UHGV virus genome: UHGV-0148877
Origin: a virus
Reading direction: 5' to 3' (one strand)
Length of the DNA stretch: 40,227 bases
This document shows positions 1-34,598 of this stretch, one piece after another. A program made the translations under genes and the position numbers. Position 1 is the first letter of the stretch. Each line of letters begins with the position of its first letter. Under the pieces are notes generated by a model. It had not been told where the DNA came from, searched no databases, and worked only from the letters and a program-made list of their open reading frames with translations.

Positions 1-483
1 CTATCTGGTCAGGGTGTCGTACTGTTTTTCACAGACTCTTCCGGCTTCGGCTGCCCGGTCAGCATACTCTGCCAGTTGTCTGTTTCTCTCGAGAGATTTA
101 CTGAGCACGTCGGCAAGCAAAACTCCGGTGTCTGCGGCTGACGTCCCAGCGCCGACAATGGCGTTATACTGCCTGAGCTGCTCACGGATGGCAACGAGCT
201 GTTGCTGCAACCGGCCAGCGCGAGCGGCAGCATCAAGAGCATCATTGCGCGCCTGGTCGATCCTCTGCTGCGCTTCACGTTCATTGATCGCTTTCTCCTG
301 TTCGTAGTGCTGACGAATTCTCTCATCTTCGGTTTTGCGGTCTTCTTTCGCCTGCGCATACCCGGCGTCGTACTGACGACTGCCGTGTACACTCCAGGCA
401 ACAACTCCTGATATGACCAGAACAGCAAGCACCGCCATGATAATCAACTGTTTCCGGTATGCTTTTACGAATGCCCAGATCAT
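1..483 (-). CDS. Rz-like inner-membrane spanin (i-spanin)
   Basis: 160 aa; N-terminal TM segment ([17 protein letters not shown]) followed by a charged coiled-coil-like region; ATG at 483 overlaps the endolysin stop (ATGA); contains an embedded +1-frame lipoprotein ORF. Stop codon is at positions 1-3. Confidence 0.6.
9..284 (-). CDS. Rz1-like outer-membrane spanin lipoprotein, embedded in the Rz gene
   Basis: Alternative frame inside Rz; ATG at 284 gives [26 protein letters not shown], i.e. a basic n-region, hydrophobic core and LAGC lipobox, then a Pro/Ser-rich mature part. Embedded architecture as in lambda Rz/Rz1. Confidence 0.55.
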   Translation of the reverse strand: MNVKRSRGSTRRAMMLLMLPLALAGCSNSSLPSVSSSGSITPLSALGRQPQTPEFCLPTCSVNLSRETDNWQSMLTGQPKPEESVKNSTTP

Positions 484-1109
484 ACCGCCAGCACCTTACT
501 GGCATTGATGTATCGCGCGCGCCGGTCGTCGATGCCGTTCCGGCCACCATTGATAATCAGAGTTACACGTGCAATATCGCCGGTATACTTCATGCATCCT
601 TTGCTGGCAAAGAACCACGCCGCGCTACGAGCCGCGTATTCGTCCTGCGCCAGCAGTTCAGGACTCTCCAGCAGGTCAACCTTAAGACCGTTTCCACAGT
701 CACGATAGTTATTCAAACCGGTAACCTGGATAAGCCCGCGCCCACGGTAGTTCCAGCCATCACCAGGGGCATTGTTCCCCATGCGTTTGCTGTACACCAG
801 ATTGGCAATCGCTCTCTGGCGCTCAAGTGGCAATGGTGGTTCGCCTGCACGTCGCCCCAATGCGTTGGCCTGTCCCTGAGTGAGACGCCCAGCCCGAACA
901 AAGTTAGCCAGTCCGCTGACGCTGTAGTTGAAATTCTCCTGCAACCGGGTGAAGCCTCCAGACTCATGCCCGACCTGAGCAATAAACATAGCCTGATCTT
1001 CTGGTTTGCTGATACCAAACTCTTTCATCGCAGAAGTTATATGCGAGAACCAGCGTGCGGCCAGTGCCTCGCTGATACCAGCAGCTCGCTGGAATTGTTT
1101 AATCTCCAT
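480..1109 (-). CDS. Endolysin, GH19 (chitinase-like) family
   Basis: 209 aa; motifs [24 protein letters not shown] and INGG recalled as typical of GH19-type phage endolysins; ATG with GAGG RBS; last gene before Rz/Rz1. Confidence 0.85.
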
Positions 1110-1407
1110 GTTTAGACCTCGATACTTTGAAAATTTGAACGACGTTACCGCGCGTTTTAATAACCGCAGCTAGCATGACAGCGTTGATAATGACCTCAGA
1201 TAAATCCACAGCCATTGGCGTACGTAACCAGATTGCATAGGCGACACGAACAGGAATACTGGCCGCAGCAACAATCAGGAAATAAGCAAGCCATCCTCCC
1301 CACCTTCGGTGTTGAGAGCCGTTACGCCGGAATGTGACAACGCGAATTGCTATGCCAGTGCAAATAACTGCATTGGTGATAAGCAAAAAAAACTCATGCG
1401 TTACCAT
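1099..1407 (-). CDS. Holin-like small membrane protein (holin or antiholin)
   Basis: 102 aa with about 3 predicted TM helices; ATG at 1407 with GGAG RBS; overlaps the endolysin start by 11 nt. Confidence 0.5.
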
Positions 1408-1798
1408 CGTCTTTTCTCCCCGGAATTAACTCGCGTGGATTATCGGAACGGTGATAGAGCCATATACCAATACGCACAGCGACAATTGCTGACACGAATG
1501 CGCCTGCAGAGAAAACAATCCCTTTTTCAAAAGAGTCCTGCGTGATGGTAGGGATCAGGCTGGCTATGCCGATAAGAATTGATGCTGCTGGTTTGTAAAA
1601 GAGAAGGCCGCAAAGAAAGCTGAGCATCGACAGGAGCACCCGGCGACGGATGGGGTACTCTACTGCAGAGGTAACAAAAATTACCGCTCCAGCCAAAGCA
1701 CCCAAAGCAACCTCAGGAGGAACTCCTGCTATCACCGCCGCCAGAGAACTCATGCTAAGCCACTGATTTAAAGTTTCACTGGTTAGTTGAGCTGACAT
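1394..1798 (-). CDS. Putative holin (membrane protein)
   Basis: About 134 aa with several TM helices, immediately upstream of the lysis genes; ATG at 1798 preferred over the track's GTG at 1807. Confidence 0.5.
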   Translation of the reverse strand: MSAQLTSETLNQWLSMSSLAAVIAGVPPEVALGALAGAVIFVTSAVEYPIRRRVLLSMLSFLCGLLFYKPAASILIGIASLIPTITQDSFEKGIVFSAGAFVSAIVAVRIGIWLYHRSDNPRELIPGRKDDGNA

Positions 1799-2000
1799 GT
1801 TTTCCACCGTTTATATGCATAACAACCTCCTGAACAGTAAAGCATTACGCATAATAAACCATTTATGGTTTTTTGTTACTTTAACATCGTCAATTCCCTG
1901 TTTTTCATGCCGAGAATAAAGCTCACCTTTTACATGACTCTGAAGAAACAAACAGTGAAGAGCAGGTTGAATACCGCACCATTTAATGGCGCGGTAGCAG

Positions 2001-2297
2001 TCAAATAGAGAAATAAACACAAAAACAAAAAACAACAGGAACAGCAAAATCCAACAGACTTCCCACATCCCACACGCGTGGATCAAAACCTCCCCACCAC
2101 GGCATGTTGATACGTTTCCCTTTCCCAAACTTTTCTATCCAGCGATATTCTGCCTGGGTGTGTTCACGCGCAATGAAGAACGTACAACCGGCTATCGCAC
2201 CGTAAGCCCAGTTTCCGGTAAAAATACCAACCAGTACCTGAGCCACAAAAGCGCAAAGCGAGTGAAGAAATGGAGTGACATCAATGCTCTTAATCAT
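2001..2297 (-). CDS. Small membrane protein translationally coupled to the tailspike gene
   Basis: 98 aa; ATG overlaps the tailspike stop (ATGA); two hydrophobic segments; function unknown. Confidence 0.45.
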   Translation of the reverse strand: MIKSIDVTPFLHSLCAFVAQVLVGIFTGNWAYGAIAGCTFFIAREHTQAEYRWIEKFGKGKRINMPWWGGFDPRVWDVGSLLDFAVPVVFCFCVYFSI

Positions 2298-4483
2298 GAA
2301 ACTTCCCCATTGGTTGAAAATATGGCTCCTCCAACGCCAAGTGTATTTCGTGTTGTGCTCAACCTCAGAGGGCTGGAGTCAGAATTAGAATATCCTGTAG
2401 CAGAAATAAAAGATCCTCCACTAATAGTCAACTGCGGAACATCGGCTATATCTGAATAAGTTCTGTCAGCAACAGTATTATTTATAGCCACATATGATCC
2501 AAAAAAACTTCTTATTGTTTGGTTTTTAACTTTACTTCCTTCAATGGTTATCCTACTACCACAGTCGGCAATAAATCCTGAATCTGCATCCAGCGTTGCA
2601 TTCATAAAAGAAGCTTCAGCTCTCTCTACATCAATCCATCTAATATCTTTTGTGGGATTTGCACCAAATACATGACAAATATTAGAGTTAAACCTTACAC
2701 CATCTTGGAGGTGCATTAATTTTTTTATATCTGTACCCCATAGCCTTGGAAAATTAACAGATGCTCCTGCATGGCAATCAAATCCCAGCTCAGCCCCTGA
2801 GATATCTACAGCCTTTCCTGAAATAACAGCACCAGTGTCTGCATTAACGGCTGTTCCACAATTGCGCATATCATTACCAGCAACATCAACGCAACCCGCA
2901 CCATCAATACGCACACCAAGTGCACATCCATAAAAACCTTTTTCAATATTTGGTTCAAGGACTTTACCACTTGTTTCTGCATCACTTTCTTCAACGTCAT
3001 GTCGTCTTGCATCAACATATGCTGTATGAATGCAGGTTAATCCACGATATGAGCAATGTATAGTTTTATGGTCGCGTATATTAACATTTGAACCATCTCT
3101 TACATTCCATCCTATATAACAATAGCTTGCACTTGACCCCTGAAAATCTGCTTTAACATTATAAATACAATTAACTGACGCAACCGTACTCTCTGTGCAC
3201 CGTTCAAACTTGCTTACAGGCATTGATGCCTTGACATTATTTACCAGTTGCAGGGAAGAGTATCTGCTATAAGAAAAATCACATACGTAATACCCTTCTG
3301 GCATATATGCAGCAACACTTTCCTCATCAGGAGCACATCCGGTATGATATGCACTAATTTTTGCACCAAAACTACCATGAATTCCAACGTAGAACTTTCG
3401 AGCACCTGAATACGGATAGAAATTAAGTTCAGCTTTTTGAGTTACAATAAATGCACAAACATCGCTATCATCTCTATTTTCTTCGATCTGAATAGCAAAT
3501 ACAGGACTTTTTGCTGCATCGCAAATGTAAAATAAATACTTGTATTCGTAATACGTTCTAACGATTTTAGTAAACAAACGAGTGTCAGAGAAAACCACTG
3601 AGTCTTCTGATGTTATTTTAATCCAAGACAAATCAACACCTGAACTGAATTCAATTTGATAGTTGATAATATGCCCGGTCTTAATTCTTATTTCGCAGAA
3701 AGCATTACCACCATCCCACATAGGTCTCATTGACTGGGCTGCAATGATTGCATCTTTGAGTGTAGGGTAATCACCCCATTCGCCAACAGTAATAACAAAA
3801 GTATAATATGAGTTAAAAACAGCGGCATTTTTGCCTTTGGATATCAACTCCTTAATCATAAAAATATTATCTTCGTAATCACAAGGAGAAATTATATCCC
3901 TCATTTTGCTTTGAAATGTTCGTTGTCTTGCCCCGCTTCCTGACGGTATAAACCAACCAAAACCACCAACAACCCCGGCGATTGCAGCATCGACATAATT
4001 ACGCATTGAGCGATTATTTACAGCGTCCTGCTCAAATGATGGATCTGCAAGGTTAGAAATTTTGTTTTGCTTTGCATCGTAATATTTTGCAAGCAAAGAT
4101 GGTTTCATCAATGCACGTCTGAACCACCCAAAACATCGCTGGATCAGCATCGTCAGGTAGTCAAATGCATCTTCATGAACTTCGGGGAAAAATTTTCCCT
4201 GATTGCGAAGATCAGTCTCCTGCACCACATCAAGCACACGCTCTATCGTAATTCGCCAGCCAGCAGCAAGCGGAGACGGAAGAACCACAGAACCGCCACT
4301 ATAAGTGCCCGCCCCAGTTACCGTATAACCGGTATCCAGAACCAATTCTGTTACGTTCCCGTTCAGGTCAGACACCTGAACAACCAGGTCTGATTTTTTG
4401 AAAATACGAAAAGTATACGGAAACGATGTCGTAACGCCGTTACCTGTGTATTCGTTGTGGTCAACTTCGGTTGAGACCGTCAT
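2294..4483 (-). CDS. Tailspike / receptor-binding protein
   Basis: 729 aa; N-terminus MTVSTEVDHNEYTGNGVTTSFPYTF resembles the conserved particle-binding domain of podovirus tailspikes; rest is Gly/Ser/Asn-rich as in beta-helix depolymerases; ATG with GGAG RBS; the C-terminal two thirds is visibly more AT-rich than flanking DNA. Confidence 0.8.
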   Translation of the reverse strand: MTVSTEVDHNEYTGNGVTTSFPYTFRIFKKSDLVVQVSDLNGNVTELVLDTGYTVTGAGTYSGGSVVLPSPLAAGWRITIERVLDVVQETDLRNQGKFFPEVHEDAFDYLTMLIQRCFGWFRRALMKPSLLAKYYDAKQNKISNLADPSFEQDAVNNRSMRNYVDAAIAGVVGGFGWFIPSGSGARQRTFQSKMRDIISPCDYEDNIFMIKELISKGKNAAVFNSYYTFVITVGEWGDYPTLKDAIIAAQSMRPMWDGGNAFCEIRIKTGHIINYQIEFSSGVDLSWIKITSEDSVVFSDTRLFTKIVRTYYEYKYLFYICDAAKSPVFAIQIEENRDDSDVCAFIVTQKAELNFYPYSGARKFYVGIHGSFGAKISAYHTGCAPDEESVAAYMPEGYYVCDFSYSRYSSLQLVNNVKASMPVSKFERCTESTVASVNCIYNVKADFQGSSASYCYIGWNVRDGSNVNIRDHKTIHCSYRGLTCIHTAYVDARRHDVEESDAETSGKVLEPNIEKGFYGCALGVRIDGAGCVDVAGNDMRNCGTAVNADTGAVISGKAVDISGAELGFDCHAGASVNFPRLWGTDIKKLMHLQDGVRFNSNICHVFGANPTKDIRWIDVERAEASFMNATLDADSGFIADCGSRITIEGSKVKNQTIRSFFGSYVAINNTVADRTYSDIADVPQLTISGGSFISATGYSNSDSSPLRLSTTRNTLGVGGAIFSTNGEVS

Positions 4484-4586
4484 GTTAAATCTCCAGATAG
4501 TCGCAGCACCCGTTGCGCCGCATATCTGGTTATTCTATTACCTGAAAAACCACATATGGATAGAAAGGATGTAAATACGAATAGAT

Positions 4587-4603
4587 ATTACCTTTCGGGT
4601 AAT
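4587..4603. promoter_or_regulatory. Operator palindrome ATTACC-TTTCG-GGTAAT
   Basis: Perfect 6+6 inverted repeat, about 75 nt upstream of the SOS-regulated small gene; an upstream hybrid copy ATTACC-TGAAA-AACCAC lies at 4538-4554. Confidence 0.55.
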
Positions 4604-4639
4604 TTGCAAAACGTGCTGGATAGCAAACAAATTATTTGC

Positions 4640-4659
4640 TACTGTATAAATATACAGTT
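4640..4659 (+). promoter_or_regulatory. LexA (SOS) box TACTGTATAAATATACAGTT
   Basis: Perfect CTGT-N8-ACAG with AT-rich spacer and TA flanks (core 4642-4657), 23 nt upstream of the ATG at 4680. Confidence 0.7.
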
Positions 4660-4679
4660 ATTGCATGGAGAAGATTAAG

Positions 4680-4937
4680 ATGCAGCAGTATCACTATCCA
4701 CTGGAAGACGGATTTACCGAAAGGATTCACACGCCAGAAGGCGTCAGGTCACTGGTGGAGGGATCGCACTTGATGAAATTACTCCGGGATCTCGATAAGG
4801 ATGGATTTAATGTCGATGGCCCACTTGCCGAACTGACTGCACTGATTAACTACGTCACCAGCTCACAGATGTCTATGCAGGATCTGCAAACACATCTCGA
4901 CTATTGTGCCGAACAATTACGAAAACAAACCCGGTAA
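4680..4937 (+). CDS. Small SOS-regulated protein paralogous to the antirepressor C-terminal domain (candidate antirepressor)
   Basis: 85 aa from the ATG at 4680 (GGAGAAG RBS); LexA box directly upstream; aligns by eye (about 40% identity over about 40 residues) with the C-terminal about 70 aa of the Bro-N antirepressor at 6083-6769 (IHTPEGV/IHSPSGV, AELTALINYV/AELTTMFCYI, DLQTHLDY/DIQTHAEY). Confidence 0.5.
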   Translation: MQQYHYPLEDGFTERIHTPEGVRSLVEGSHLMKLLRDLDKDGFNVDGPLAELTALINYVTSSQMSMQDLQTHLDYCAEQLRKQTR

Positions 4938-4939
4938 AT

Positions 4940-4975
4940 TTAAAGGCCGCAAGAGCGGCCTATCGTTTCGCTTTG
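4940..4975. terminator. Bidirectional hairpin terminator between convergent genes
   Basis: AGGCCGC-AAGA-GCGGCCT hairpin flanked by A/T-rich runs on both sides, between the 4680-4937 (+) and 4960-5688 (-) genes. Confidence 0.5.
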
Positions 4976-5688
4976 TGCTCATCCCAGCACGTTTTGCACC
5001 ATGCCATTAAGCCGTCCGCATTTTGATTATTAGGGTAAAAGCTGGTTCGTTTTCTGCGGACATTACAAATTGGGCACCACTTCATATGGCGTGTATTCTT
5101 TGGGCCATCGAGACACCTTGCACACCACTTAGTCAATCCATCTGGATTTTTTGACGATTTCCTGAATTTTTCATATGGAAGGTTTATTCTGCATCGCAAG
5201 CACTGCTTGCTACCACTTGAAACTCTGTTAGCTGATTCTTCTTTTGGCGGCGATACAGAAGGTATTCTTGCTGGCTCTGATACTGCCTGAGGTGCTTTTT
5301 TAGATGACTGAGACGATATGTCATCACCAGGGAATCTTCCATGATATGCCGGACGCGTTGACACTCCAGGTGGAAGCTCAGCTGTAAACGGCTTTGGCTG
5401 AATCAGTTGCCTCTCTTTTGCTAACTCCTGCTGTTTATAATATGTCTGGATTACCGCACTATCATAAGCAGGAGGTGCGGAAATATTAGGCGCATTACCT
5501 CCAGTTTTTTGAAACTGAGTAGAGGTGTGTTCTATCACCTGTGTACGATTAATCGTTATCTCCCCATCTTCGGTCTTTATCGTTTTGTTATGATTAACGA
5601 CCGTACGATCAGAGATCTTAGTCTTGTTCTGGTTGATAACGTAAATAATCACCGCAACCACACCAACAACTATCCAGAAAACTTCCAT
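4960..5688 (-). CDS. Membrane-anchored protein with tandem Cys-rich (zinc-ribbon-like) C-terminal repeats
   Basis: 242 aa; N-terminal TM helix (VFWIVVGVVAVIIYVI), Pro/Ser-rich linker, then two repeats of C-x2-C ... DGL-x2-WC-x2-C (CLRC...DGLTKWCARC; CPIC...DGLMAWCKTC); AT-rich; no family recognised. Confidence 0.55.
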   Translation of the reverse strand: MEVFWIVVGVVAVIIYVINQNKTKISDRTVVNHNKTIKTEDGEITINRTQVIEHTSTQFQKTGGNAPNISAPPAYDSAVIQTYYKQQELAKERQLIQPKPFTAELPPGVSTRPAYHGRFPGDDISSQSSKKAPQAVSEPARIPSVSPPKEESANRVSSGSKQCLRCRINLPYEKFRKSSKNPDGLTKWCARCLDGPKNTRHMKWCPICNVRRKRTSFYPNNQNADGLMAWCKTCWDEHKAKR

Positions 5689-5707
5689 TGCTTTTCCTCA
5701 CAATAAC

Positions 5708-5724
5708 ATTACTTTAAAGGTAAT
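5708..5724. promoter_or_regulatory. Operator-like palindrome ATTACT-TTAAA-GGTAAT
   Basis: 9/10 core match, 20 nt upstream of the start of the minus-strand membrane-protein gene (5688). Confidence 0.4.
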
Positions 5725-5800
5725 ATCTTGCTTTCAGGTGATCAAGCGTTAAACGCAATCAACCAAATACGGTTGATTTTAATATTTCTTCGCGTTTATC

Positions 5801-5817
5801 ATTACCTTTGCGGTAAA
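5801..5817. promoter_or_regulatory. Operator palindrome ATTACC-TTTGC-GGTAAA
   Basis: Perfect TTACC-N5-GGTAA core in the divergent region between the membrane-protein gene and the antirepressor gene. Confidence 0.5.
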
Positions 5818-6082
5818 TTTACATCGCACTCCTCTTGTGCCATAGTAATCGGGCACTGGCAAAATCCAGTGCCGGGATTGGCGTCCCGAGTTACTACAGA
5901 GGCACATATGCCGCATAAGCGGTTTTTTTATGTGTAAAGCGCACCTATTCTATGGTGGGCTGTGTGGGGGCACCGAAAGGTGCGCCGGGTCCTTTGTAGC
6001 CGGTTACGCCAACCCTGCACAGTTCACCACCAACCGATTGGCGTCGGTAGTGGTGATTAACCTAACTACAAAGGTGATCGCT

Positions 6083-6769
6083 ATGACTGCTAACGTAACC
6101 CCATCTGTTTTTCATTTTGAATCAGAAGCAACCATTCGAGCCATTGTTATTGATGGAAATCCTTGGTTTGTTGCCAAAGACGTTATTAAAGCTCTTCAAC
6201 TGACAAACCCCACTATGTCAATAAAATCTCTTGATGATGATGAAAGGGCTAAATTTAACTTAGGCCGTCAAGGCGAAACCAATATTATCAACGAGTCAGG
6301 CCTCTACACACTGATCCTCCGCTGCCGCGACGCAGTGACACCAGGCACTATCCCCTACCGCTTTCGTAAATGGGTTACAGGTGAGGTTCTTCCTCAGATC
6401 CGCCGCACCGGAAGTTACATTAAAAACTCGCTCCCGCAGGAAGAACGCATAAAGATGGTTGCCGACCAGGTAGCCAACGCCACGGCGTCAGCAGTAATGC
6501 AGGCGATGAAGATAGAGAACAAAACCTACAGTGCCCCACTGAAGCCCGGCTACCGCAGCCTGATTCATTCGCCGTCTGGTGTTCTCGGCCTGACGGAGAA
6601 CTCACTGCTGATGAATCTGCTGAACCAGTTACAGGACGACGGGCACGACGTATCGGGCGCGGCGGCGGAGCTGACCACCATGTTCTGCTACATCGTCGGT
6701 GTGAGCAAATGCCTGCGTGATATCCAGACGCACGCGGAGTACATCAACGACAAGGCAGGGTTCTTCTGA
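6083..6769 (+). CDS. Antirepressor with Bro-N domain
   Basis: 228 aa from the ATG at 6083 (AAGGTGA RBS); N-terminus IRAIVIDGNPWFVAKDVIKAL matches the Bro-N pattern; C-terminal domain paralogous to the 4680-4937 product. Confidence 0.8.
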   Translation: MTANVTPSVFHFESEATIRAIVIDGNPWFVAKDVIKALQLTNPTMSIKSLDDDERAKFNLGRQGETNIINESGLYTLILRCRDAVTPGTIPYRFRKWVTGEVLPQIRRTGSYIKNSLPQEERIKMVADQVANATASAVMQAMKIENKTYSAPLKPGYRSLIHSPSGVLGLTENSLLMNLLNQLQDDGHDVSGAAAELTTMFCYIVGVSKCLRDIQTHAEYINDKAGFF

Positions 6770-6777
6770 CGGGCGGC

Positions 6778-6800
6778 GGCACAGGGATGTGCCTTTAAAT
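6778..6800 (+). terminator. Possible intrinsic terminator after the antirepressor gene
   Basis: GGCACA-GGGA-TGTGCC hairpin followed by TTTAAAT. Confidence 0.35.
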
Positions 6801-6813
6801 AATTCTGTACAGA

Positions 6814-6842
6814 TTGCAGACTGTGGGTGAATAGCGTACTAT
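6814..6842 (+). promoter_or_regulatory. Sigma70-like promoter (TTGCAG-17-TACTAT) overlapping an operator
   Basis: -35 TTGCAG at 6814-6819, 17-bp spacer, -10 TACTAT at 6837-6842; the palindrome at 6841-6857 overlaps the -10 and start region. Confidence 0.45.
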
Positions 6843-6857
6843 TACCTCAAGGGTAAA
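6841..6857. promoter_or_regulatory. Operator palindrome ATTACC-TCAAG-GGTAAA
   Basis: Perfect TTACC-N5-GGTAA core overlapping the -10 of the promoter that reads into the toxin-antitoxin-like pair. Confidence 0.5.
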
Positions 6858-6916
6858 CGGATTGGTTTCATTTTTATTAATCCGTGTAATGAACTTATGA
6901 GATATGAGGTAATGTC

Positions 6917-7096
6917 ATGCGAAACGAAAAATTGCAGATGCGTAGAGCGCAAGCTGCCGCAAGACGTTCTTTCAATGGAAGCGTAGAGTGCGTAAAAGTT
7001 ACTATGACAAAAGATCACGCAAGTCGCGTATCCCGCGCTTTCTTTGATTCTCGTAACAATAAGGAAAATTATGAGTTCGTCTGCGTCGCAGAATGA
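6917..7096 (+). CDS. Small basic protein, candidate antitoxin (below the ORF-track cut-off)
   Basis: 59 aa (MRNEKLQMRRAQAAARRSF...), ATG with GAGGTAAT RBS; overlaps the start of the downstream toxin-like gene by 26 nt, the usual antitoxin-toxin arrangement. Confidence 0.3.
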   Translation: MRNEKLQMRRAQAAARRSFNGSVECVKVTMTKDHASRVSRAFFDSRNNKENYEFVCVAE

Positions 7097-7616
7097 TAAA
7101 AATCAAATTGTCAGATATAAGGGTCGAGTATTGCATACGCAAAATTTCTCGGCCCTTTGTGCATCTGATCTTGAGCTGAAGAAAGTATCTGATGCCTTTA
7201 CCCAGTATTGGAAAACGGGATACCATCCATCTCTTGGTAAAGATGCTGCATTTGCTCGTCCGACAGAAATGCTTAAACTAAATGTCAGGCATACTCATGT
7301 CGATAACCAAGACTATATTCCAGAAGATAGTGATAAAAAACACACTGGTAAAAAATCATCTTGGGATGCATGGAAAAAAATAGCGTCTGTGCAAGTAAAA
7401 TGCATACCAACAAGTAATTGCTTTTTAGTTTATTCGGTAAATCACAATCGTGATGCGCTGGTTATGTTTTTTGTTGACGCAGATGCCCACAACATAACTG
7501 AGCAAGAAGAGTTTAAAGAGGCAGCAATCACTATCAGTTATCAATTCTTTGAGAAAACAAAAACAGAACCAATGCCTTTAGAAGAAGATCTTTTTTCTGA
7601 TAAATGGAAGGAATAA
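7071..7616 (+). CDS. YafO-like toxin-family protein (putative ribosome-dependent mRNA interferase)
   Basis: 181 aa from the ATG at 7071 (AAGGAAAA RBS); segments DAFTQYWKTGYHPSLGKDAAF, LKLNVRHTHV and CFLVYSVNHNRDALVMFFV resemble the conserved blocks I recall for YafO-family toxins; AT-rich; family assignment is from memory. Confidence 0.45.
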   Translation: MSSSASQNDKNQIVRYKGRVLHTQNFSALCASDLELKKVSDAFTQYWKTGYHPSLGKDAAFARPTEMLKLNVRHTHVDNQDYIPEDSDKKHTGKKSSWDAWKKIASVQVKCIPTSNCFLVYSVNHNRDALVMFFVDADAHNITEQEEFKEAAITISYQFFEKTKTEPMPLEEDLFSDKWKE

Positions 7617-7711
7617 GCCCGCGCCGCGGGCTTTTTTGTGGACGAAACAAAAGTCAGTGCTACACTCATTGACGCCACATTGAGGTGGATTATAGATGGA
7701 AATTTTTCACA

Positions 7712-7902: not shown

Positions 7903-8754
7903 TCACTGTGCAGTTTTCGCTGATCGATTTTCAGCTCTAAATTCAAGAACCGTTTCAATATTTCTTTCCTTCAGCATATCAATAACATTTTTATTCATTT
8001 GACTATCACTGGTTAATAACTGGTAAACGTTGCTTCTCTCTTTATCAGAGTTTTCTTTAACAGCTGCTTTGCATGCCAAATGCTTATTGAAATTTTCTAC
8101 ATCGCTAGTACAGGAATTTACGGCTGCTGATGAAATATCAGACGCTGAAGAAACACCGTCATCCAAACGTTTTATAGCATTTTCTATACATGAGTTAAGG
8201 GAATAAACGACAACTGAGCGATACCCTTCAGACGCACACCATTCTAAATTTCTTGAAGGATCGAGTGGTTTTACTTCGCTGGATTGAATTAACTTGTCAA
8301 AAACTGACTTATATTCAATCTGTTTTTTATCTATAGCCCATACTTCAGTAGCTGATTTATAATTCCCCGTATGCCTATTAACATCAAATCCATGTTTTAT
8401 AAGCAAATCTGCCCATGAAAGATTTATTGATTCATTGTTATGAGGCCATTTTCCTGTCAGAACCGCCCCCATAGACCCCATATATCCGCCATATGATGGT
8501 ATAGCACCATGGCTCAGTAACTTCTCTGCAACCACAGGGCAATTAATTACATAAGAGGCGTAAAGCCCATTCCATAAAGCCCCTCTATAGTAATCGCCAC
8601 GATTAGGTTCTTTTAAGTCGATAGCCTTTGATAATTGTTCGCACGTTTTGCATGCATCAAAGTTATCCTTATTGCATTGCAATGAACTGGCAGCTGTAGG
8701 ATTTACAGAGACTATTGAAAGCACTATGCCAAAAAACAAATTTATTTTTTTCAT
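7903..8754 (-). CDS. Secreted Cys-containing protein of unknown function
   Basis: 283 aa; N-terminal signal peptide MKKINLFFGIVLSIVSVNPTAASS; about 8 Cys; strongly AT-rich relative to the structural genes; ATG 1 nt after the stop of the 1129-aa protein gene. Confidence 0.6.
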   Translation of the reverse strand: MKKINLFFGIVLSIVSVNPTAASSLQCNKDNFDACKTCEQLSKAIDLKEPNRGDYYRGALWNGLYASYVINCPVVAEKLLSHGAIPSYGGYMGSMGAVLTGKWPHNNESINLSWADLLIKHGFDVNRHTGNYKSATEVWAIDKKQIEYKSVFDKLIQSSEVKPLDPSRNLEWCASEGYRSVVVYSLNSCIENAIKRLDDGVSSASDISSAAVNSCTSDVENFNKHLACKAAVKENSDKERSNVYQLLTSDSQMNKNVIDMLKERNIETVLEFRAENRSAKTAQ

Positions 8755-20158: not shown

Positions 20159-20209
20159 CTTCTTTCTCCATTAGTGGGTCTGTTACGACCCACAGGTTAA
20201 TAACAGGCG

Positions 20210-24474: not shown

Positions 24475-24491
24475 ATTACCTTTCAGGTAAC
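24475..24491. promoter_or_regulatory. Operator palindrome ATTACC-TTTCA-GGTAAC, with a TTGACA hexamer at 24454-24459
   Basis: Perfect TTACC-N5-GGTAA core; same TTGACA-then-palindrome arrangement as at 34689-34733; oriented toward the plus-strand tRNA. Confidence 0.55.
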
Positions 24492-24812: not shown

Positions 24813-24889
24813 GTGGCATTAGCTCAGTTGGACAGAGCAACCGCCTTCTAAGCGGTTGGTCGCAGGTTCGAATCCTGCATGCCACGCCA
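24813..24889 (+). tRNA. tRNA-Arg (anticodon UCU)
   Basis: 77 nt folded by hand: 7-bp acceptor stem GTGGCAT/ATGCCAC, D stem GCTC/GAGC, anticodon stem ACCGC/GCGGT with loop CTTCTAA (anticodon TCT), T stem GCAGG/CCTGC with loop TTCGAAT, discriminator G, encoded CCA. Confidence 0.9.
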
Positions 24890-33628: not shown

Positions 33629-33859
33629 TCATGAGTAGAAGAAGTATGCCAGTTCTGCTTTTGAGCGCAGCCATTGTCTTGATTTACAGGCTTTAAAAAG
33701 CCCATCCATCAATACCTTACCTGGCATTTTGCGCTTACCTGTTAAGTGAGTCTGGATATAGTGACTCGTCGTTCCGGCTTCCTGTGCGAAGGCTTCACGC
33801 TCATCCGGAGTAAGTGCAAGCCAGTGCTTTTTGAAATCGAAATGTCCGTTATCGCTCAT
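33629..33859 (-). CDS. Cro-like early regulator (HTH)
   Basis: 76 aa; divergent from the repressor gene across a region with three operator palindromes; HTH-like segment EREAFAQEAGTTSHYIQTHLTG. Confidence 0.6.
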   Translation of the reverse strand: MSDNGHFDFKKHWLALTPDEREAFAQEAGTTSHYIQTHLTGKRKMPGKVLMDGLFKACKSRQWLRSKAELAYFFYS

Positions 33860-34013: not shown

Positions 34014-34598
34014 ATGAAAAGTATCCAGGACGTCCGCAGGCAAAATCTCAACGACTTGATCGACCGTGAATTCAATGGTGTTCAGACGCGGATGGCTGAA
34101 AAACTTGGAACTCAGGCAAATCTGGTAAACCGCTGGGCTCTTGGCAAGAAGGTTATCGGCGACCAGGTTGCGCGAAAAATTGAAGCTGCCGCCAATAAAC
34201 CCCGTAACTGGCTTGATATCGATCGCTCGCTTTCTCAGGAAGGTTTTCAGCCTGTCGGCCCGAGTGATATAGGTCAGCTGGCTGCTCACAACCTGGAACG
34301 CTGGATGAGCGAAAGCCGCGACCTTTCAACGCAGGGAAAACTACACCGCGCATCCGGCGTCGCCCAGGTGACAATCAGCCGCCTGTTAAACAATGAGGTC
34401 AGCGTTTCCATTTCCACCCTGGAGAATGTTGCATCCGCATTCGGGCGTCATGGCTATGAATTACTGATTCACCCGCACGACCCTGCGACTATCAACTATG
34501 ACCGCTCGCGCTACGCATTGTTACCCGAAACCGAGAAAGCAAAGATCGAAAGTTACATTGAATTTGTCATCAACCAGAACGAAAAAAACAAACAATAA
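34014..34598 (+). CDS. Prophage repressor (CI-like, HTH; no S24 peptidase domain evident)
   Basis: 194 aa; N-terminal HTH (GVQTRMAEKLGTQANLVNRWALGKK) and a second HTH-like segment (ASGVAQVTISRLLNNE); divergent from cro-like gene; flanked by operator clusters; followed by a terminator. Confidence 0.7.
   Translation: MKSIQDVRRQNLNDLIDREFNGVQTRMAEKLGTQANLVNRWALGKKVIGDQVARKIEAAANKPRNWLDIDRSLSQEGFQPVGPSDIGQLAAHNLERWMSESRDLSTQGKLHRASGVAQVTISRLLNNEVSVSISTLENVASAFGRHGYELLIHPHDPATINYDRSRYALLPETEKAKIESYIEFVINQNEKNKQ

Follow-up and report, generated by a model that had tools for sequence, protein, structure and literature searches.

In a 40,227-nt stretch of viral DNA (UHGV virus genome UHGV-0148877; hereafter the window), a near-consensus LexA site precedes a short gene whose product resembles the end of a longer Bro-N antirepressor encoded downstream. 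The locus raises two questions: how a prophage whose repressor has no self-cleavage domain could respond to DNA damage, and what one domain does in two proteins. The earlier note on this DNA had proposed SOS induction through a LexA-controlled antirepressor, with the shared domain as a candidate repressor-binding module that exists in a short SOS-gated form and a long Bro-N-fused form. Our analysis supports both proposals, the first through orthology with the Ant/Rep pair of phage SPC32H and conservation of the LexA box, the second through the same orthology and a profile comparison of the two domains. In our reading, the window represents a Uetakevirus prophage that uses an SPC32H-type antirepression switch, and we give this explanation as a whole a probability of roughly 85%. 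It draws on homology, gene order, site conservation, RNA family matches, and base complementarity.

By its sequence, the window represents a prophage of E. coli in the epsilon15/phiV10 group (Uetakevirus). Positions 4484-7000 match Escherichia phage TL-2011b (96%, with 92% of the region covered), and further matching phages include phiV10, vB_EcoP_ZX5, and the O157 typing phages 9 and 10. The window carries, in order, the lysis genes and the tailspike gene (minus strand, 1-4483), the ant/Bro-N region, the structural genes, the replication genes, a divergent cro/rep pair (~33.6-34.6 kb), and the integrase gene at the right end. The tailspike and ant genes diverge from an intergenic region of 196 bp (4484-4679).

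The small gene, ant, occupies 4680..4937 on the plus strand. The sequence GGAG (4667-4670) is positioned 9 nt 5' of the ATG at 4680 to serve as its Shine-Dalgarno sequence; no such sequence accompanies the alternative in-frame ATG at 4665. The 85-residue product matches the PDB chain 5D50_E, named 'Anti-repressor protein', over residues 2-84 (E 3.3e-47), which is its sole PDB match, and it is 85.9% identical to SPC32H Ant. It also matches phrog_450 (4.8e-48), a family that PHROGs labels 'unknown function', and it has no Pfam or NCBIfam family at the curated cut-off. A Pfam match to DUF724 scores 17.8 bits, below the cut-off of 38.4, and is rejected; the YafO, Stc1, and DUF6955 matches of the neighbours of ant are under threshold as well and are not relied on. 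The gene order around ant is the same as that around SPC32H ant, phiV10 p24, and epsilon15 gp19. Between ant and a convergent 242-aa ORF, a terminator scan finds a G+C-rich hairpin (4944..4961) of seven pairs, six of them G-C, which is a probable terminator.

Among 1.84 billion cluster representatives, a full HMMER scan returns 61 Ant-like matches, and ~10% of complete E. coli genomes (529 of 5426) carry the ant locus. In the listed E. coli records the product is a 'hypothetical protein', and it is mostly so named in the naming sources.

The target of such a protein would be the product of rep (34014..34598, plus strand), a 194-aa prophage repressor of the SPC32H Rep type. Rep matches the PDB chain 5D50_A, 'Repressor', over residues 1-190 (E 4e-42), and 5D4Z_A over residues 89-190 (E 4e-20). 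The two HTH-like regions that had been described in the repressor are recovered, one as HTH_3 at residues 106-147, above the Pfam cut-off, and the other as a weaker HTH-like (YdaS) match at residues 21-61, under the cut-off. The statement that the repressor lacks an autocleavage domain also agrees with our searches: Rep has no Peptidase_S24 match in Pfam at E<=0.1, and tblastn with LexA, UmuD, and the C-terminal part of lambda CI against the whole window gives a best E of 1.7. Rep is 100% identical to the phiV10 repressor and is identical across the deposited phiV10-group genomes; its identity with SPC32H Rep is only ~44%. In a tblastn search of 50,697 phage records, the Ant domain is found in 32 and a Rep homologue in 37, one of the latter being a partial match in a Pseudomonas phage. 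All 32 records with the Ant domain also encode a Rep homologue. Divergent from rep is the gene for a Cro-like early regulator (33629..33859, minus strand), which matches phrog_35, 'transcriptional repressor' (8.7e-13).

Candidate operators for Rep are scattered through the window. The palindrome TTACC-N5-GGTAA occurs exactly at 10 sites, against 0.07 expected, and at 3 more sites with one mismatch. These sites lie in the rep/cro intergenic region (33896, with one mismatch, and 33944), 3' of rep, in front of a number of early and late gene blocks, ahead of isrK, ahead of a gene pair encoding a 59-aa and a YafO-like protein, and, as the exact palindrome TTACCTTTCGGGTAA, at 4588-4602 in the tailspike/ant intergenic region. 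The GenBank record of epsilon15 annotates the same dispersed motif as repressor-binding sites; among them, the homologue of the 4588-4602 site, beside the ant homologue gp19, carries the feature 'protein_bind: repressor'. The 4588-4602 palindrome is conserved in a ten-phage alignment. Positioned ~55 bp upstream of the LexA box, this operator could act on the divergent tailspike promoter and not on ant.

The second antirepressor gene (6083..6769, plus strand) encodes a protein of 228 residues, with a Bro-N domain at residues 18-104 (Pfam, 5e-20), a linker, and an Ant-like domain at residues ~145-228 (nt 6515-6766). The C-terminal part matches 5D50_E (E 1.9e-13) and phrog_450 (6.2e-36). The homology between the 85-aa product and the end of the Bro-N protein, as first described, stands, but the alignment extends over 81-84 residues (37% identity with residues ~145-228) and not over about 70. 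The earlier note had named a profile comparison of the two C-terminal domains as a check. By hhalign, profiles of 15 stand-alone and 14 fused sequences align over 81 columns with a probability of 99.9% (E 1.4e-31), and these comparisons identify the last 84 residues of the Bro-N protein as a true paralogue of Ant. An AlphaFold2 model of the 228-aa protein, made with 17 homologues, has a mean pLDDT of 51.8, too low for the model to lend structural support.

In relatives, the same C-terminal domain is found behind other N-terminal domains. The cluster-representative search finds it C-terminal to AntA, Bro-N, Rha, or ORF6N domains. Eighty relatives in IMG/VR have a small Ant with 98-100% identity; the long form is present in 72 of them, with a Bro-N domain in 60, AntA in 8, ORF6N in 3, and an unassigned N-terminus in 1, and throughout these 72 proteins the C-terminal domain is 92-100% identical. 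TL-2011b has a third copy, in which a P22_AR_N domain is joined to an Ant-like C-terminal domain 93% identical to that of the window; this gene adjoins an Arc-like repressor gene and a sar RNA, and the whole cassette is absent from the window. Judged from these matches, five N-domains (Bro-N, AntA, Rha, ORF6N, and P22_AR_N) are interchangeable in front of one C-terminal domain. As the Rep-binding part of these proteins, the constant C-terminal domain is the leading candidate, with the N-domains being exchangeable.

An experiment on a near-identical phage bears on this assignment. The Rep of vB_EcoP_ZX5 is 100% identical to that of the window, and the C-terminal domain of its 'ORF4 anti-repressor' is 98.8% identical to that of the window. 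Overexpression of ORF4 decreases lysogens from 1e9 to 1e6, i.e. ~1000-fold (PMC9782041). The authors describe a Bro-family domain at the ORF4 N-terminus and give 39% homology with the phiV10 antirepressor; a 216-aa database protein that ends in the same C-terminal domain indicates that the N-domain is probably of the AntA type. The overexpression result leaves the activities of the N-domain and the C-terminal domain unseparated. That paper deals with the long form only and makes no mention of LexA, SPC32H, or the small ant gene (PMC9782041).

The long form appears to be under separate control, with a Rep operator abutting its promoter and two RNA genes, isrK and C4, in front of it. The palindrome TTACCTTTGCGGTAA (5802..5816) lies directly 5' of the -35 element of a promoter-like site found by promoter scan, TTTACA-17-CATAGT (TG-extended; 5818..5846, plus strand). 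The same operator/-35 arrangement is found in locus L014. A transcript from this site would start at ~5853, which is the first base of an isrK-type sRNA with its own terminator (5853..5929, plus strand; Rfam RF01394, scoring 74.2 bits where the gathering score is 50). A full-length C4-type antisense RNA follows at 5948..6034 on the same strand (RF01695, 79.5 bits, gathering score 45). The C4 loop CCUUUGUAG (5991-5999) is an exact 9-nt complement of CUACAAAGG (6066-6074, plus strand), a C4 target whose positions overlap the Shine-Dalgarno sequence preceding the Bro-N ant gene. Another C4 segment, ACGCCAA (6006-6012), is complementary over 7 nt to UUGGCGU, which occurs both at 6038-6044 and in an isrK loop at 5878-5884. 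Downstream of its UUGGCGU, isrK carries CUACAGAGG, which, as read from the sequence, is one mismatch from an exact C4 target.

The isrK/C4 pair is found 5' of the long form, whatever the N-domain, in the window, TL-2011b, Tyrion, and L011, L014, and L015, the last three being metagenomic or genomic loci. The reading frame from the ATG at 5930 enters the long ant gene without a stop codon, giving a 279-aa call, and no distinct short ORF is seen. The earlier note overlooked this control of the long form by a Rep operator and the IsrK and C4 RNAs.

If both proteins inactivate Rep, their divergence ought to be read beside that of Rep, and here the two forms behave differently. Across the phages compared, the small Ant shows no co-variation with Rep. 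The small Ant is 86% identical between the window and SPC32H despite 44% identity of the Reps, and a Klebsiella phage has a Rep nearer to that of SPC32H (66%) yet a more distant Ant (64%). Therefore, co-evolution is unusable as evidence for the small form. The 86% against 44% identity could reflect a broad specificity of the small Ant, with cross-talk between phages, or recombinational reassortment of modules. The C-terminal domain of the long form, in contrast, tracks Rep more closely, with 78% identity against 78% for Rep in Tyrion, and 54% against 46% in the Klebsiella phage.

This difference gives some weight to a reading in which the two forms act on different repressors, the small Ant as a broad inducer across Uetakevirus Reps, and the long form tuned to its own Rep or, as an anti-immunity weapon during superinfection, to that of a competitor. 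The C4/IsrK layout, which resembles the anti-immunity arrangement of the P1 immI type, points the same way. Cross-talk by antirepressors acting in trans is also known, from the Gifsy and Fels-2 prophages (PMC7380047). However, the comparison covers four phage lineages, and mosaic recombination would give the same pattern with no difference in specificity. We consider a division of targets possible but unlikely, and favour a common target, Rep, for both forms.

A less probable reading, to which we assign a small chance, is that the shared C-terminal domain is an oligomerisation (tetramerisation) module only, that Bro-N is the acting part, through DNA binding or another target, and that the long form is not an antirepressor of Rep at all. 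It is consistent with the description of Ant as a tetramer in papers that cite the SPC32H work (PMC9638917), with the common occurrence of Bro-N, AntA, Rha, and ORF6N in phage regulators that have other C-terminal parts, and with the numbers of relatives, 7057 for Bro-N and just 61 cluster representatives for the Ant-like domain. In SPC32H, however, the stand-alone domain is by itself the antirepressor, according to the record annotation and the PDB name. Moreover, it is the N-domain that is swapped among five families while the C-terminal domain is kept nearly constant beside an identical Rep in the deposited phiV10-group genomes, the divergence of the long-form C-terminal domain roughly follows that of Rep, and the Ant-like domain is confined to phage records that have a Rep homologue. 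These observations argue for a C-terminal domain that contacts Rep.

The trigger of the small form would be the LexA (SOS) box TACTGTATAAATATACAGTT at 4640-4659, which agrees with the LexA consensus TACTGTATATATATACAGTA at 18 of 20 positions, i.e. with two mismatches. Searched at <=3 mismatches, the 20-nt consensus has its sole match in the window here, and none of 100 shuffles contains a match. The CTGT-N8-ACAG core occurs three times in the window, against 0.42 expected; the occurrences at 20180 and 25005 have G+C-rich spacers and match the 20-mer consensus poorly, and they are set aside as probable chance matches. The site had been called a textbook LexA site 23 nt before the ATG; it is indeed near-consensus and unique, but the gap to the ATG at 4680 is 20 nt (4660-4679). 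The distance from the box to the tailspike start is 157 nt.

The box is conserved among relatives. When the intergenic regions of ten Uetakevirus phages, from Escherichia, Salmonella, Enterobacter, and Klebsiella, are aligned, both LexA half-sites prove conserved and the 8-nt spacer variable. CTGT-N8-ACAG is intact in 77 of the 79 close IMG/VR relatives with enough upstream sequence, the contig of the 80th relative, which is truncated on its upstream side, being left out of this count. Four variants of the box are present among these relatives, with differences confined to the spacer or flank. Natural loss of the box in the remaining two was considered and rejected, since one is an adapter-contaminated contig end and the other an insertion. 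The deposited genomes of SPC32N and SPC32H have a sole difference in the tailspike-ant intergenic region, a C-to-A change in the LexA box that turns ACAG into AAAG. Kim and Ryu (2013) reportedly found that one base change in the LexA site 5' of ant makes Ant synthesis constitutive, giving the virulent-like phage SPC32N, and the ACAG-to-AAAG change in the deposited SPC32N genome agrees with this.

A candidate ant promoter (4617..4645, plus strand) consists of a -35 element TGGATA (4617-4622), a 17-nt spacer, and a -10 element TACTGT (4640-4645). A generic sigma-70 promoter scan calls no ant promoter. We infer the promoter from the position of these hexamers, which occupy alignment columns that are invariant, or nearly so, across the ten phages. 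The putative -10 element is inside the LexA box, so LexA would cover it. That the box serves the tailspike and lysis genes on its other side, or transcription both ways, and not ant specifically, so that the 85-aa protein is not the SOS trigger, is very improbable: although the box is palindromic, the leftward tailspike promoter must share the 196-bp region, and a Rep operator is located between the box and the tailspike gene, the box lies far closer to the ant start than to the tailspike start, covers a conserved -10-like hexamer, and is the site of the SPC32N change that reportedly makes Ant constitutive and is visible in the deposited genomes.

With LexA control of ant as the preferred reading, the switch would work as follows. 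In the lysogen, the non-cleavable Rep would occupy the TTACC-N5-GGTAA operators scattered across the prophage, and host LexA would, by orthology, bind the 4640-4659 box overlapping the ant -10 element. After DNA damage, LexA would cleave itself and the 85-aa Ant would be made. On the model of the SPC32H structure, Ant would then bind as a tetramer to the C-terminal domains of Rep and dismantle the DNA-bound Rep tetramer, leading to lytic growth; here we assume that the Ant-Rep interface is conserved in the window phage. The Bro-N long form is most likely a second Rep-inactivating protein under different control. A C4-type RNA from its own leader would pair with its ribosome-binding site, and the IsrK-type RNA upstream would present decoys of the C4 targets. 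As for its role and timing, the long form may be a feed-forward amplifier after the first removal of Rep, or may act on infection in an anti-immunity of the P1/P22 style.

The reuse of the Ant fold behind interchangeable N-domains is supported by sequence analysis and one indirect experiment. A wider proposal, to which we would give slightly less than even odds, is that the SPC32H-Ant fold is a portable Rep-targeting module, reused within one phiV10-like genome, with each copy under a different sensing circuit and with five swappable N-domains. The circuits would be LexA/SOS for the small form, the Rep operator and IsrK/C4 for the long form, and Arc/sar for the P22_AR_N form of TL-2011b. If this is true, one non-cleavable repressor would integrate several induction and anti-immunity signals, and a general rule would suggest itself, that the C-terminal domain, not the annotated N-domain, decides which repressor is targeted by 'Bro-N/AntA/Rha antirepressors'. 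This modular, multi-input use of the likely Rep-binding domain is the only part of the system that we have not found described in the literature. It offers a functional assignment, repressor binding, for the unannotated C-terminal halves of some Bro-N, AntA, Rha, ORF6N, and P22_AR_N antirepressors, and suggests that a single repressor may be hit through parallel SOS, RNA, and Arc-type circuits. There is also a value for annotation. The SOS trigger of a widespread prophage group, including typing phages and phages of outbreak strains of O157/O103, goes unrecognised because the protein has no Pfam or NCBIfam model, is of 'unknown function' in PHROGs, and is mostly recorded as a 'hypothetical protein'.

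Among known systems, P22 immI (Ant, Arc, Mnt, and sar RNA) is similar in that an antirepressor binds and thereby inactivates the prophage repressor and its control lies apart from the immunity region. It differs in the domains involved: TL-2011b joins a P22-type N-domain to an SPC32H-Ant-like C-terminal domain, and the window is without the cassette.

The control region of the long form has closer parallels. The P1 immI region (c4-icd-ant) and P4 have the same antisense-RNA arrangement as the isrK/C4/long-form region of the window. As in Gifsy-1, P1, and P4, RNA-RNA complementarity extends over the ribosome-binding region. The isrK-orf45-anrP region of Gifsy-1 likewise combines, behind one promoter, an isrK sRNA with a terminator, a C4-family RNA, and an antirepressor gene (PMC4825925). 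There, IsrK turns on translation of the AnrP antirepressor and is complementary to the downstream STnc1160 RNA, and the authors draw a parallel with the CI/SeqA RNAs of P4 (Hershko-Shalev et al. 2016, PMC4825925). In contrast to Gifsy-1 and P1, the upstream frame of the window (ATG 5930) is unstopped before ant and a coupled orf45/icd is not evident; in addition, the long antirepressor has the SPC32H Ant fold at its C-terminus, and a Rep operator abuts the promoter.

The small form shares its logic with 186 Tum, N15 AntC, and the Gifsy proteins GfoA, GfhA, and GftA, in which a non-cleavable repressor is made SOS-responsive by a LexA-repressed small antirepressor (PMC7380047). For LexA-controlled antirepressors of Salmonella prophages, that review points to Kim & Ryu 2013, together with Lemire 2011 and Shearwin 1998 (PMC7380047). 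However, the Pfam, NCBIfam, and PDB searches of the 85-aa protein detect no sequence relationship, and on these searches the 85-aa Ant is analogous to these proteins in function and does not belong to their families. The earlier note had drawn this parallel, which holds for the logic, and had overlooked the closer kin, the SPC32H orthologue.

SPC32H is the nearest system in every component of the SOS arm. Its small Ant has 86 residues, against 85 in the window, with 86% identity. Its Rep has the same full-length architecture (N-terminal HTH, middle dimerisation domain, and C-terminal Ant-binding/tetramerisation domain) and no S24 domain. The LexA box is in the same place 5' of ant and aligns with that of the window, ant is divergent from the tailspike gene, and both phages belong to the genus Uetakevirus. 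In the SPC32H genome record, ant lies between the tailspike and structural genes and rep beside a divergent small gene, the same positions as in the window. According to papers that discuss this system, SPC32H Rep is a tetramer on DNA, which an Ant tetramer breaks by binding two Rep dimers (PMC9638917; PMC9986798), with the C-terminal domain of Rep providing both tetramerisation and the contact with Ant (PMC9638917; PMC9986798; bioRxiv 2025.11.27.690993). The systems differ in host, E. coli for the window phage and Salmonella for SPC32H, in Reps that are ~44% identical, and in the second, long antirepressor behind isrK and C4, a gene of this kind being absent from that position in SPC32H. On the sequence comparison, the window system is a close orthologue of the published and crystallised SPC32H Ant/Rep switch (Kim & Ryu 2013 J Virol; Kim et al. 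2016 PNAS; PDB 5D50, 5D4Z) and belongs to an already known type; to specialists, its core will be the ordinary E. coli counterpart of a Salmonella phage switch.

The palindrome TTACC-N5-GGTAA, the putative operator of the prophage repressor Rep, occurs in the window in 10 exact copies, compared with 0.07 expected, and the copies are spread over the entire prophage (4588, 5802, 6842, 24476, 27292, 31551, 31613, 33944, 34656, and 34718). Copies with one mismatch are present at 5709, 27274, and 33896. The sites are mostly intergenic, usually precede gene blocks, and are frequently paired, with 48-93 bp between copies. The motif is likewise annotated in the epsilon15 record, as repressor-binding sites. 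The dispersed copies imply that Rep acts directly on numerous individual transcription units and not just on one or two early promoters.

Between the gene of the 85-aa small Ant and that of the long Bro-N antirepressor lies a minus-strand ORF of 242 aa (4960-5688), with the one-mismatch putative operator at 5709 immediately upstream of its start. The product has a hydrophobic N-terminal stretch resembling a membrane anchor, its C-terminal part matches the Cys-rich endonuclease VII/Lar-like families, and it also matches phrog_6762, which is of unknown function. In the phage TL-2011b this ORF appears as a misc_feature only, and a counterpart is absent in phiV10 and in the related locus L011. On the other side of the long antirepressor, a 59-aa ORF (6917-7096), with a putative operator ahead at 6842, overlaps the ORF of a 181-aa protein (7071-7616) that gives a sub-threshold match to the YafO toxin. 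These two ORFs, whose position beside the long antirepressor is conserved across TL-2011b and L011-L013, may represent a toxin-antitoxin-like pair of accessory genes under Rep control. Elsewhere, a plus-strand tRNA gene (24813-24886; Rfam, 73 bits) is surrounded by minus-strand phage genes, and the putative operator at 24476 is nearby.

A third antirepressor is encoded by TL-2011b, the closest relative; in this protein, a P22_AR_N N-domain is joined to an Ant-like C-terminal domain that is 93% identical to that of the window. This gene adjoins an Arc-like repressor and a sar RNA (cassette at 6472-7416, minus strand; 7418-7485; and 7489-7656, minus strand). In the window, this position is occupied by an unrelated ORF of 283 aa (7903-8754, minus strand). 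In the type phage, phiV10, the long antirepressor (3766-4445) is annotated as two ORFs, p23 (194 aa) and p22 (29 aa), and the tblastn match to the Ant-like C-terminal domain is broken into two pieces with 86% covered; the domain thus appears to be disrupted.

Automatic gene callers often lengthen both antirepressors, and the extended products are common among database entries. The long antirepressor becomes 279 aa, in frame across the C4 RNA (5930-6082), and small Ant becomes 110-127 aa (4556-4679), apparently by read-back through the upstream region. Because no in-frame stop codon lies between ATG 5930 and ATG 6083, a separate leader peptide like orf45 of Gifsy-1 is not evident.

In a subgroup of small-ant loci, ATGT-N8-ACAG replaces the LexA box CTGT-N8-ACAG, the weakening being consistently in the left half-site (Klebsiella phage BUCT711; L014, 9550-9580; L015, 2815-2835, minus strand). 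The substitution may lower the threshold for induction or match a different preference of the host LexA. In the IMG/VR relative L070 (about 3400-3500), the left half of the box is swapped for unrelated sequence, possibly through an insertion uncoupling ant from LexA.

When the window, SPC32H, Tyrion, and Klebsiella phage ST512-KPC3phi13.3 are compared, co-variation with Rep is not found for small Ant and is rough for the C-terminal domain of the long form. Small Ant (4680-4937) is much better conserved than Rep (34014-34598), its presumed partner, with identities to the SPC32H proteins of 86% and 44%, respectively.
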